Positions 1-18,735 of a DNA stretch of 41,651 nucleotides are shown here, piece by piece. A model generated the notes under the pieces. That model was not told the DNA's origin and searched no databases. It saw only the letters and a program-made list of their open reading frames with translations. Position 1 is the stretch's first letter. The number at the start of each line of letters is the position of its first letter. Both the position numbers and the translations under genes were made by a program. The DNA comes from Escherichia coli (GTDB taxonomy: Bacteria > Pseudomonadota > Gammaproteobacteria > Enterobacterales > Enterobacteriaceae), in assembly GCF_003334335.1 (NCBI RefSeq), contig NZ_QOWQ01000037.1, one strand, 5' to 3'.

Positions 1-103
1 GCTGAACTGTTGCTGGAAGACTACAAAGCCTCCCTGAAATATCTCAGCGATCACCCGAAACTGCAGGGTATTGCCCAACAGAACAGCTTTAAACATACCT
101 GAT
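1..103 (+). CDS. gadB: Glutamate decarboxylase beta, 3' end only (last 33 codons; gene starts upstream of window)
   Basis: Frame 1 translates to [33 protein letters not shown] then TGA at 101-103, which I recognise as the GadB C-terminus; gadC follows immediately as in the gadBC operon. Confidence 0.9.
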
Positions 104-122
104 AACGTTTAACGGTAACGGT

Positions 123-148
123 GTCCCGAAACGAACCCGTTTCGGGAC
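123..148 (+). other. Perfect 10-bp stem / 6-nt loop hairpin in the gadB-gadC intergenic region
   Basis: gtcccgaaac-gaaccc-gtttcgggac read directly; not followed by a T-run, so more likely a partial terminator or mRNA processing/stability element than a full terminator. Confidence 0.5.
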
Positions 149-257
149 AATTTCCAAAGTCTGTTCACTGGCATTAGCAACGGAAAATATTGTTCTGAAT
201 ACGCTTCAGAACAAAACAGGTGCGGTTCCGACAGGAATACCGTTTTAGGGGGATAAT

Positions 258-1793
258 ATGGCTACATCAGTACAGACAGGTAAAGCTAAGCAGCTCACAT
301 TACTTGGATTCTTTGCCATAACGGCATCGATGGTAATGGCTGTTTATGAATACCCTACCTTCGCAACATCGGGCTTTTCATTAGTCTTCTTCCTGCTATT
401 AGGCGGGATTTTATGGTTTATTCCCGTGGGACTTTGTGCTGCGGAAATGGCCACCGTCGACGGCTGGGAAGAAGGTGGTGTCTTCGCCTGGGTATCAAAT
501 ACTCTGGGGCCGAGATGGGGATTTGCAGCGATCTCATTTGGCTATCTGCAAATCGCCATTGGTTTTATTCCGATGCTCTATTTCGTGTTAGGGGCACTCT
601 CCTACATCCTGAAATGGCCAGCGCTGAATGAAGACCCCATTACCAAAACTATTGCAGCACTCATCATTCTTTGGGCGCTGGCATTAACGCAGTTTGGTGG
701 CACGAAATACACGGCGCGAATTGCTAAAGTTGGCTTCTTCGCCGGTATCCTGTTACCTGCATTTATTTTGATCGCATTAGCGGCTATTTATCTGCACTCC
801 GGTGCCCCCGTTGCTATCGAAATGGATTCGAAGACCTTCTTCCCTGACTTCTCTAAAGTGGGCACCCTGGTAGTATTTGTTGCCTTCATTTTGAGTTATA
901 TGGGCGTAGAAGCATCCGCAACCCACGTCAATGAAATGAGCAACCCAGGGCGCGACTATCCGTTGGCTATGTTACTGCTGATGGTGGCGGCAATCTGCTT
1001 AAGCTCTGTTGGTGGTTTGTCTATTGCGATGGTCATTCCGGGTAATGAAATCAACCTCTCCGCAGGGGTAATGCAAACCTTTACCGTTCTGATGTCCCAT
1101 GTGGCACCAGAAATTGAGTGGACGGTTCGCGTGATCTCCGCACTGCTGTTGCTGGGTGTTCTGGCGGAAATCGCCTCCTGGATTGTTGGTCCTTCTCGCG
1201 GGATGTATGTCACAGCGCAGAAAAACCTGCTGCCAGCGGCATTCGCTAAAATGAACAAAAATGGCGTACCGGTAACGCTGGTCATTTCGCAGCTGGTGAT
1301 TACGTCTATCGCGTTGATCATCCTCACCAATACCGGTGGCGGTAACAACATGTCCTTCCTGATCGCACTGGCGCTGACGGTGGTGATTTATCTGTGTGCT
1401 TATTTCATGCTGTTTATTGGCTACATTGTGTTGGTTCTTAAACATCCTGACTTAAAACGCACATTTAATATCCCTGGTGGTAAAGGGGTGAAACTGGTCG
1501 TGGCAATTGTCGGTCTGCTGACTTCAATTATGGCGTTTATTGTTTCCTTCCTGCCGCCGGATAACATCCAGGGTGATTCTACCGATATGTATGTTGAATT
1601 ACTGGTTGTTAGTTTCCTGGTGGTACTTGCCCTGCCCTTTATTCTCTATGCTGTTCATGATCGTAAAGGCAAAGCAAATACCGGCGTCACTCTGGAGCCA
1701 ATCAACAGTCAGAACGCACCAAAAGGTCACTTCTTCCTGCACCCGCGTGCACGTTCACCACACTATATTGTGATGAATGACAAGAAACACTAA
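258..1793 (+). CDS. gadC: Glutamate:GABA antiporter (APC family), acid resistance
   Basis: 511-aa ORF, multi-pass hydrophobic protein; sequence recognised as GadC (XasA); lies directly downstream of gadB. Confidence 0.95.
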
Positions 1794-1817
1794 CCATGTC
1801 TGAATGGTTATAAGACA

Positions 1818-1846
1818 AGGGAGCGATAATTCATCGCTCCCTTTTT
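1818..1846 (+). terminator. Rho-independent terminator after gadC
   Basis: agggagcgat / atcgctccct 10-bp stem, 5-nt loop, followed by a T5 run. Confidence 0.7.
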
Positions 1847-1923
1847 CGTGCTTGCTGTCGTATTGACTTAACGGGGATAAGTACGAGAATGAGCGCACAT
1901 CTGTTTACCGGAAACCAGCACAT

Positions 1924-3243
1924 ATGGATATCTGCTCCCGAAACAAGAAATTAACGATTAGAAGACCAGCGATACTAGTTGCACTGGCACTTTTACTGTG
2001 TAGTTGTAAAAGCACGCCTCCAGAGTCCATGGTGACACCACCAGCAGGTTCAAAGCCACCAGCCACGACGCAACAATCGTCACAACCGATGCGTGGCATC
2101 TGGCTGGCCACGGTTTCTCGGCTCGACTGGCCACCGGTTTCCTCGGTTAACATTAGTAACCCCACCAGCCGGGCCCGTGTACAACAACAGGCGATGATCG
2201 ACAAACTGGATCATCTGCAACGTCTCGGCATAAACACGGTCTTTTTCCAGGTCAAGCCGGACGGTACCGCCCTGTGGCCATCGAAAATTTTGCCGTGGTC
2301 CGATCTTATGACCGGTAAGATTGGTGAAAATCCGGGTTACGATCCGCTGCAATTTATGCTCGACGAAGCCCACAAGCGTGGGATGAAAGTACACGCCTGG
2401 TTTAACCCCTATCGCGTATCGGTTAATACGAAGCCCAGTACTATCAGGGAACTGAATAGCACTCTGTCTCAACAACCGGCGAGCGTCTATGTGCAACACC
2501 GCGACTGGATCAGAACGTCTGGCGATCGCTTTGTCCTCGACCCGGGCATCCCTGAGGTTCAGGACTGGATCACATCAATAGTCGCAGAAGTGGTTTCCCG
2601 CTATCCCGTAGATGGCGTGCAGTTTGACGACTATTTCTATACGGAGTCACCGGGTTCACGGCTAAATGATAACGAAACGTACCGTAAATACGGAGGCGCA
2701 TTTGCGTCAAAAGCAGACTGGCGGCGCAACAATACTCAGCAGTTAATTGCAAAGGTATCGCACACCATTAAAAGCATTAAGCCGGGAGTCGAATTTGGTG
2801 TTAGCCCGGCAGGCGTGTGGCGTAACCGATCACACGATCCGCTCGGTTCCGATACCCGAGGCGCGGCAGCCTATGACGAATCCTACGCTGACACCCGTCG
2901 ATGGGTGGAACAAGGATTGCTGGATTACATTGCTCCCCAAATTTACTGGCCGTTCTCACGGAGTGCCGCGCGTTATGACGTGTTGGCAAAATGGTGGGCG
3001 GATGTCGTTAAACCGACCAGGACCCGCCTGTATATCGGTATCGCCTTCTATAAAGTGGGTGAACCTTCAAAGATAGAGCCAGACTGGATGATTAACGGCG
3101 GCGTACCGGAACTGAAAAAGCAGCTCGATCTTAACGATGCTGTGCCCGAAATTAGCGGCACCATCTTGTTCCGTGAGGACTATCTGAATAAACCGCAGAC
3201 TCAACAAGCGGTCAGCTATCTGCAAAGTCGCTGGGGCAGTTAA
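1924..3243 (+). CDS. yddW: Putative lipoprotein, glycoside-hydrolase-like (YddW)
   Basis: 439-aa ORF; N-terminus has a signal peptide ending in a Cys-containing lipobox-like segment (ALLLCSCK); recognised as YddW from position and sequence. Confidence 0.85.
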   Translation: MDICSRNKKLTIRRPAILVALALLLCSCKSTPPESMVTPPAGSKPPATTQQSSQPMRGIWLATVSRLDWPPVSSVNISNPTSRARVQQQAMIDKLDHLQRLGINTVFFQVKPDGTALWPSKILPWSDLMTGKIGENPGYDPLQFMLDEAHKRGMKVHAWFNPYRVSVNTKPSTIRELNSTLSQQPASVYVQHRDWIRTSGDRFVLDPGIPEVQDWITSIVAEVVSRYPVDGVQFDDYFYTESPGSRLNDNETYRKYGGAFASKADWRRNNTQQLIAKVSHTIKSIKPGVEFGVSPAGVWRNRSHDPLGSDTRGAAAYDESYADTRRWVEQGLLDYIAPQIYWPFSRSAARYDVLAKWWADVVKPTRTRLYIGIAFYKVGEPSKIEPDWMINGGVPELKKQLDLNDAVPEISGTILFREDYLNKPQTQQAVSYLQSRWGS

Positions 3244-3260: not shown

Positions 3261-3295
3261 GTAACAAGCCGGTGCTTTACCCACCGGCTTGTTAC
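3261..3295 (+). terminator. Strong hairpin after yddW (14-bp perfect stem)
   Basis: gtaacaagccggtg / caccggcttgttac with a 7-nt loop; downstream T-run is weak, so terminator function is inferred. Confidence 0.5.
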
Positions 3296-14921: not shown

Positions 14922-14951
14922 TTCATAACCATCAGTCCTCAATGACGATTA

Positions 14952-14988
14952 AACACCATTGCCTGCGCAATGGTGTTTTTGTTTTTAT
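14952..14988 (+). terminator. Rho-independent terminator after bdm-sra
   Basis: aacaccattgc / gcaatggtgtt 11-bp stem, 4-nt loop, then tttgttttt. Confidence 0.8.
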
Positions 14989-18349: not shown

Positions 18350-18735
18350 AAAAATGGCACTTTATAAAGCGCCATTTAGAACTGATGACAAACGCAACAT
18401 TGCCTGATGCGCTACGCTTATCAGGCCTACACGTTCACTGCAATCTATTGGATTTGAAGGGTTTTCATGCCGGATAAGGCGTTCACGCCGCATCCGGCAT
18501 GAACAAAGCCTACGTTGTCTACAATATGAAAATGACGCCTTTTACAGCGCCATTTGAAACTGATGACAAACGCAACATTGCCTGATGCGCTACGCTTATC
18601 AGGCCTACACGTTCACTGCAATCTATTGGATTTGAAGGGTTTTCATGCCGGATAAGGCGTTCACGCCGCATCCGGCATGAACAAAGCCTACGTTGTCTAC
18701 AATATGAAAATGGCGCCTTTTACAGCGCCATTTTC
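18350..18735. repeat. Tandem duplication (2 x ~178 bp) of a BIME unit, each with two REP palindromes and a terminator-like hairpin
   Basis: REP 'gcctgatgcgctacgcttatcaggcctac' at about 18402 and 18580; REP 'gccggataaggcgttcacgccgcatccggc' at about 18469 and 18647; the units are near-identical by eye. Flanking hairpins aaaatggcgcc-ttttacag-cgccatttt sit between convergent yddM and fdnI. Confidence 0.9.

Follow-up and report, generated by a model that had tools for sequence, protein, structure and literature searches.

Stem-loops placed between two cistrons of a single message can stabilise the mRNA, as described for the REP hairpins of Escherichia coli malE-malF, for Rhodobacter capsulatus pufBA-pufLMX and for papBA. 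Leaky attenuators, which also lie within operons, are defined by a U tract that follows a stem. In E. coli, U-poor stem-loops have in addition been found to define steady-state 3' ends by blocking the exonucleases PNPase and RNase II (Dar & Sorek 2018, PMC6061677). The strongest of the acid-resistance systems in E. coli has at its core the gadBC operon, whose products are a glutamate decarboxylase and an antiporter and which is also a common cloning target for the production of GABA. Work on its regulation has dealt almost exclusively with the promoter, and we found no literature on a gadB-gadC terminator, hairpin or processing site.

Here we describe a stem-loop, hairpin 1, in the spacer between gadB and gadC. 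Like the intercistronic stabilising stem-loops, it stands between two cistrons, has no U tract and is accompanied by an RNA 3' end at the foot of its stem; in addition, the product of the upstream cistron is needed in larger amounts in those operons, as it is for gadB. Unlike the malE-malF type of REP hairpin, hairpin 1 is a unique sequence present in single copy, and for gadBC an effect on half-life or on the ratio of the two products is a proposal. With intra-operon leaky attenuators it shares a G+C-rich stem, a tetraloop and a 3' end a few nucleotides past the stem, but where these elements have their defining U tract hairpin 1 has 3 nt, which are not conserved. The protective 3' stem-loops of Dar & Sorek (PMC6061677) resemble it in being U-poor, in their terminator-like stability and in the precise Term-seq 3' end directly downstream; hairpin 1 differs from them in lying inside an operon, approximately 105 nt upstream of a translated gene. 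A further difference from these stem-loops of Rho-dependent or processed transcripts is that the spacer is not C-rich (C 20 and G 25 of 109 nt). Hairpin 1 is an ordinary and well-known kind of element that will not surprise a specialist; we found no paper describing it, though the 3' end next to it already stands in a published table. As set out below, it very probably determines a gadB-only transcript, whether by protection or by leaky termination.

A perfect 12-bp hairpin in the gadB-gadC spacer

The stretch of DNA that was analysed (the window, 41,651 nucleotides) carries the last 102 nt of gadB followed by gadC, digH (yddW) and dosC. Its gadB-gadC spacer of 155 nt is identical to the spacer between b1493 and b1492 of E. 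coli K-12 MG1655, in which gadB (b1493) occupies 1570645-1572045 on the minus strand and gadC is b1492. The features discussed in the text are collected in Table 1. A first-pass annotation of the window had reported a perfect 10-bp repeat, gtcccgaaac-gaaccc-gtttcgggac, at 123..148 between the gadB stop codon and the gadC start codon. Both the sequence and its location proved to be exactly as claimed. The stated stem length held only in part, since the 10 bp are present but one more pair forms at each end, giving a stem of 12 bp closed by an AACC tetraloop. An inverted-repeat search of the window likewise returned two arms of 12 nt, 100% complementary and 4 nt apart. The hairpin starts 19 nt past the gadB stop codon and lies 109 nt ahead of the gadC ATG.

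Table 1. Features of the gadB-gadC region, in window coordinates.
Feature	Position	Strand	Description
gadB 3' end	1..102	+	Stop codon TGA at 100-102; Reading frame and translation (...QNSFKHT*) agree with the C-terminus of GadB; MG1655 b1493
Tandem AACGGT, two copies	111..122	+	Directly 5' of the hairpin 1 stem; U122 pairs with A149; read from the sequence
Hairpin 1	122..149	+	12-bp stem, arms 122-133/138-149, core 123-132/139-148; loop AACC at 134-137
Hairpin 1 tail, AUUUCC	150..155	+	In vivo RNA 3' end at U153 (Term-seq)
Conserved spacer remainder	153..257	+	Predicted helices 152-156/181-185 and 222-243; Shine-Dalgarno AGGGGGA at 247-253
Hairpin 2	190..214	+	Perfect 10-bp stem, TTGTTCTGAA-tacgc-TTCAGAACAA
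gadC, glutamate/GABA antiporter	258..1793	+	Downstream cistron; ATG at 258
Operon-end terminator	1817..1847	+	Stem 1817-1827/1833-1843, then U5; RNA 3' end at C1847; T-tract score 4.0

The folding energy, which the first-pass annotation had named as a check, supported a stable structure. RNA folding of positions 118-153 gave a dG of -20.7 kcal/mol (z = -4.83), and none of 200 dinucleotide shuffles was equally stable. The entire spacer is unusually structured, with a fold z of -3.27. We calculate that chance would produce approximately 5e-5 perfect short-loop hairpins of 12 bp per 155-nt spacer. Perfect short-loop hairpins of at least 10 bp number about 7 in the 41.6-kb window; most of these adjoin the ends of genes or belong to REP elements, and the spacer contains two. 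As had been noted earlier, hairpin 1 has no trailing U-run. It is followed by AAUUUCC (AAUUUCCA), which contains 3 U only, and a consensus terminator scan made no call there. The homology between gadA and gadB ends at approximately position 106, about 4 nt past the stop codon, and hairpin 1 is thereby confined to the gadBC locus.

Conservation of the stem within Escherichia

The region was present in 5,406 of 5,426 complete E. coli genomes, at one place per genome (median 1). Four alleles, which differ at loop positions 133, 134 and 136 only, account for 5,298 of 5,407 records (98%): GAACCC (3,584 records), GAAGCC (1,105), ACACCC (362) and GCACCC (247). A metagenome scan with a conserved 24-mer yielded 14 loci only, with one new loop variant. 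The sole other E. coli variant sampled has the AACGGT repeat triplicated upstream of the stem (NZ_OZ121084.1), where the repeat abuts the stem; this triplication suggests that the repeat is prone to slippage.

Between Escherichia species the loop sequence varies freely. In E. albertii the stem is kept by means of three compensatory changes, in which U124-A147 has become C-G and both A129-U142 and A130-U141 have become G-C, while E69-like lineages carry a G129.U142 intermediate. Across the Escherichia alignment 94% of cells are paired and 3 of the 12 pairs covary, a level of covariation that was matched in 4 of 500 shuffles. Stem stability remains between -18 and -21 kcal/mol in all lineages except Escherichia sp. 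MOD1-EC7003 (-14.3). Compensatory change had been proposed by the first-pass annotation as a check on the pairing, and the three changes in E. albertii, together with the restriction of E. coli polymorphism to the loop, bear it out. In an antisense RNA each G.U pair would turn into an A.C mismatch, and the sense RNA is therefore the selected molecule. These comparisons indicate that the stem of hairpin 1 is under selection for pairing and not for sequence.

The short U run shows a different pattern from the stem. After the stem, E. albertii has AAACUCC, the E69-like lineages have AAAUUCC and MOD1 has AAUUCC. We scored T tracts by a decaying T-weight of the d'Aubenton-Carafa type. The score was 0.9-1.5 at hairpin 1 versus 4.0 at the gadC terminator, and it fell to 0.1-0.4 in E. 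albertii and the E69-like lineages, in which the stem is still kept. Judged by its lack of conservation, the U run appears to be evolutionarily dispensable, whereas the stem does not.

A repeat of this kind might also have no RNA function at all, being either a relic terminator brought in with a divergent Escherichia gadB or a DNA palindrome for a dimeric protein. The repeat is indeed a perfect palindrome in DNA, and Escherichia GadB is an outlier. The GadB proteins that eight other proteobacterial genera encode ahead of gadC share 79-94% identity with one another but only 57-61% with that of Escherichia. Escherichia GadC, in contrast, is an ordinary member at 70-78%. The Escherichia operon thus seems to be a chimera in which gadB has been replaced, and the gadB-gadC junction, which the spacer seems to represent, is probably a gene-replacement scar. 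However, three compensatory changes combined with loop-only polymorphism show ongoing selection on pairing, the half-sites are not conserved, the G.U wobbles fit RNA only, and RNA 3' ends accumulate at U153. An element without RNA function, which was already disfavoured, is highly improbable on this evidence. A protein operator in particular was rejected, since in E. albertii the half-sites change and the pairing is kept, and G.U pairing is confined to the sense strand.

An RNA 3' end lies just past the stem in vivo

Published Term-seq data place an RNA 3' end beside hairpin 1. The M63 glucose sheet, for cells at OD 0.4 (Adams 2021, eLife, PMC7815308, Supplementary file 1), gives an end at MG1655 1570594(-) with 33,817 reads and with the flanking sequence TAACGTTTAACGGTAACGGTGTCCCGAAACGAACCCGTTTCGGGACAATTTCCAAAGTCTG. 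When mapped from the gadB stop at 1570645, this end corresponds to U153 of the window, the last U of AAUUU, 5 nt past C148. The first-pass annotation had offered two roles, attenuation of read-through or a determinant of processing or stability, which a lack of conserved pairing and of transcript ends near 123..148 was to refute. Both checks turned out in its favour, since the pairing is conserved and this end lies 5 nt past the stem. The same M63 sheet gives the 3' end of the operon-end terminator at 1568900(-) with 70,553 reads (PMC7815308); under these gad-expressing conditions, the U153 end thus has about half the reads of the gadC terminator end. Both ends are listed in one of the three Term-seq conditions (M63) and are absent from both LB sheets (PMC7815308). 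The Rho map of that study was made in LB only, where the gadBC ends are unlisted (PMC7815308). Data files from SMRT-Cappable-seq and from Chen 2015 were also searched, and no gadB or gadC entries were found in them.

The 1570594 end carries the label 'orphan' and is not linked to gadB in the published table. In Adams 2021 an end is classed as 'primary' when it lies at most 50 bp from a gene end (PMC7815308), and the label arises because this end is 51 nt from gadB, beyond the 50-bp rule. Hairpin 1 now gives this orphan an assignment. The gadC terminator end at 1568900, which is 54 nt past the gadC stop, is likewise an 'orphan' through the same rule.

The main rival to a protective role for hairpin 1 is that it acts as a leaky intrinsic (Rho-independent) terminator, at which polymerase would release a fraction of transcripts at U151-153, on a short AUUU tract, and so attenuate read-through into gadC. 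The stem is G+C-rich and carries a tetraloop, the 3' end falls exactly at the end of the UUU, 4-5 nt past the stem, and U-poor hairpins may be inefficient intrinsic terminators (Dar & Sorek, PMC6061677). If the two RNAs are equally stable, 33.8k versus 70.6k reads would imply approximately 30% termination. Of the two parts of an intrinsic terminator, however, the G+C-rich stem-loop is present and the U-rich tract of approximately 7-8 nt is not: only 3 U are found, preceded by AA, with the low T score and the silent terminator scan given above. Moreover, E. albertii (AAACUCC) no longer has the U run and other Escherichia lineages have a weaker one, while the stem is kept by compensatory change. 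We consider leaky termination possible rather than likely. Its outcome would be the same in one respect, as a partial terminator would also produce a gadB-only transcript.

Hairpins in the gadB-gadC spacers of other genera and after gadA

A scan based on GadC, with one genome per species, identified 80 loci, most of which have gadB directly upstream. No homologue of the Escherichia spacer was detected among these loci outside Escherichia. Outside Escherichia, 54 distinct spacers with a length of 40 nt or more were surveyed for hairpins, using 100 dinucleotide shuffles of each and equal scan steps. The median z of the 54 was -3.1. In 44 of them no more than 5 of 100 shuffles equalled the local hairpin, and in 37, from other Proteobacteria and of unrelated sequence, no more than 1 of 100 did so. 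The hairpins start at a median of 18 nt past the gadB stop, and within 45 nt of it in 49 of 54. Eight further loci have spacers of 19-37 nt, which leave no room for a hairpin. Since gadBC occurs with spacers under 40 nt at these eight loci, the hairpin would be a tuning device and not a requirement of gadBC.

The sequences that follow these hairpins bear on the choice between protection and termination. At least 6 U among the 8 nt adjoining the stem were present in 8 of 54 spacers, for example in Yersinia rohdei, Serratia and Comamonas, and the other 46 were U-poor. Textbook terminators are seen in Yersinia rohdei and Serratia (GGGGCGGC...GCCCCGCUUUUUU) and in Comamonas (GGCAUGCCAUUUUUUU), and their presence in analogous spacers counts in favour of a leaky terminator. 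The lack of a U tract at 46 of the 54 analogous hairpins counts against it and favours protection. When spacer hairpins were compared with post-gadC hairpins in other genera, U-richness (at least 6 U) did not differ significantly (8/54 versus 15/53, Fisher p = 0.10), a comparison confounded by the fact that gadC often precedes further operon genes. Five Providencia and Proteus species have two-hairpin spacers, with compensatory changes in 4 and 2 pairs, respectively. The Providencia and Proteus hairpins precede a conserved Shine-Dalgarno sequence, AGGAGAAC.

A comparable structure follows gadA. In MG1655, a 15-bp hairpin (AACCGAAUGCCCAGC...GCUGGGCAUUCGGUU) begins 20 nt past the gadA stop (3666100-3666180, minus strand) and has a U-poor tail, GCUUAUUA. 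It resembles hairpin 1 in having a strong stem near the stop codon, a U-poor tail and a gene downstream, but it is unrelated to hairpin 1 in sequence. The downstream gene is gadX, which is reported to be partly co-transcribed with gadA. No curated Term-seq end is listed at the gadA hairpin. Across the genomes compared, a strong and usually U-poor stem-loop just past the reach of the terminating ribosome thus recurs at the decarboxylase genes of this system, with structure rather than sequence being kept. The recurrence of sequence-unrelated hairpins across Proteobacteria suggests recurrent selection for control of stoichiometry.

Proposed protection of the gadB 3' end

We give roughly even chances to the proposal that, within the gadBC message, hairpin 1 acts as a stem-loop that sets the 3' end of a gadB-only mRNA and shields that end. 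Under this proposal, transcription would proceed from the gadB promoter and some RNAs would come to end at U153, a few nucleotides past the stem. The downstream RNA would first be cleaved in the spacer, or transcription would stop beyond hairpin 1. The 3'-to-5' exonucleases PNPase and RNase II would then trim the RNA back until they were blocked by the G+C-rich stem of 12 bp. The protected gadB segment would outlast or outnumber the gadC segment, and such a gadB-only RNA would account for an excess of the cytoplasmic decarboxylase over the membrane antiporter from one promoter.

Several lines of evidence bear on this proposal. The U run is weak and unconserved while the stem is conserved, which favours processing and protection over termination. 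RNase III cleavage at hairpin 1 is unlikely, as its stem has just 12 bp. The locus has two traits of a protective stem-loop, in that the transcribed spacer forms a stable structure lacking a U tract and a steady-state 3' end immediately follows it, and the stem-loops described by Dar & Sorek 2018 provide a precedent with the same kind of hairpin. Protection is also favoured by the comparatively long life of gadB mRNA, whose half-life in glucose chemostats was 5.3-10.9 min (the gadC entry in the same data is 'NA'; PMC3936743). Against protection, a weak terminator would likewise be expected to leave a 3' end where U153 is, 4-5 nt past the stem on the last U of the UUU. The RNase E-like motifs in the spacer are pattern matches only. 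On balance, trimming is a likelier origin of the U153 end than termination. Hairpin 1 most likely leaves the cell with more message for the decarboxylase than for the antiporter from one operon, and it may thereby alter the GadB:GadC ratio.

The physiology of acid resistance offers a reason for uncoupling the two genes, since acid resistance by AR1 requires GadA/GadB and not GadC (PMC5217608). Upon a shift from pH 8 to 5.5, gadB and gadC changed in parallel (2.13 vs 2.27-fold; PMC7188888), a response that points to a constant ratio and not to a switch that depends on conditions. If hairpin 1 acts as proposed, GadC may be under-expressed from constructs that contain the native spacer. The hairpin should be useful for annotation and for the engineering of gadBC.

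The remainder of the spacer and hairpin 2

Positions 153-257 are 91-99% identical across Escherichia species, versus 67-91% at the third codon positions of gadC; between E. coli and E. albertii the values are 92% and 67%, respectively. The identity of this segment above that of gadC third codon positions shows that approximately 105 nt of non-coding RNA are under purifying selection at the level of sequence, a form of constraint unlike that on hairpin 1. No homologue of 153-257 was found outside Escherichia, and a covariance-model scan of window positions 1-2000 with Rfam 15 (E <= 10) gave no match in the spacer (103-257). RNAalifold predicted four consecutive helices in 122-257, with one covarying pair, 156/181 (A.C, G-C, A-U). 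In E. whittamii, E69 and E. albertii the lower half of hairpin 2 has lost its pairing with no compensatory change; conservation is limited to its upper 5-6 bp. Neither hairpin 2 nor the conservation of 153-257 had been noticed in the first-pass annotation.

Two further structural candidates in the spacer were rejected. Read on the minus strand, hairpin 2 is terminator-like and is followed by TATTTTCC; a minus-strand terminator was set aside because neither strand of hairpin 1 carries a T run and no convergent gene ends at hairpin 2. An antiterminator-type pairing of the AACGG repeats with CCGUU would comprise about 5 bp only (by eye), as compared with the 12-bp stem.

The conservation of 153-257 raises another explanation, in which the spacer as a whole (122-257) would be a structured element that mainly controls gadC translation or decay, for example through an sRNA, CsrA or RNase E, with hairpin 1 as one of its modules and the U153 end as a by-product. 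Such a regulator would account for the identity of 153-257 between E. coli and E. albertii, well above that at gadC third positions, and for the four predicted helices with their covarying pair; the Escherichia spacer also contains GGA and RNase E-like motifs, and those of Providencia and Proteus likewise have two covarying hairpins. It is nevertheless improbable, given that the spacer has neither an Rfam match nor a homologue outside Escherichia and that the structure of hairpin 2 is not conserved. The parallel response of gadB and gadC to pH argues against conditional control under that stimulus (PMC7188888), and no literature on a regulator of this kind was found. A combined scheme, which we regard as doubtful, would make 122-257 a dedicated structured RNA born when gadB was replaced in Escherichia: hairpin 1 would fix the gadB-only end, and the remainder would be an undescribed region for post-transcriptional control of gadC, a target of an sRNA, CsrA or RNase E. 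If this were so, GadB, which is alone sufficient for AR1, could be expressed independently of GadC.

Other hairpins in the window

Two identical REP-type palindromes (TTCATGCCGGATAAGGCGT/ACGCCGCATCCGGCATGAA) are located at 18464-18503 and 18642-18681, 178 bp apart. Classification of hairpin 1 as a REP element was rejected, as it occurs in a single copy per genome and its sequence is unlike that of the REP pairs at 18464-18681. A perfect 14-bp hairpin is found at 3261-3295, 18 nt past the digH stop. A perfect 12-bp hairpin at 14951-14978, beside sra, coincides with a published Term-seq end at 1555766.
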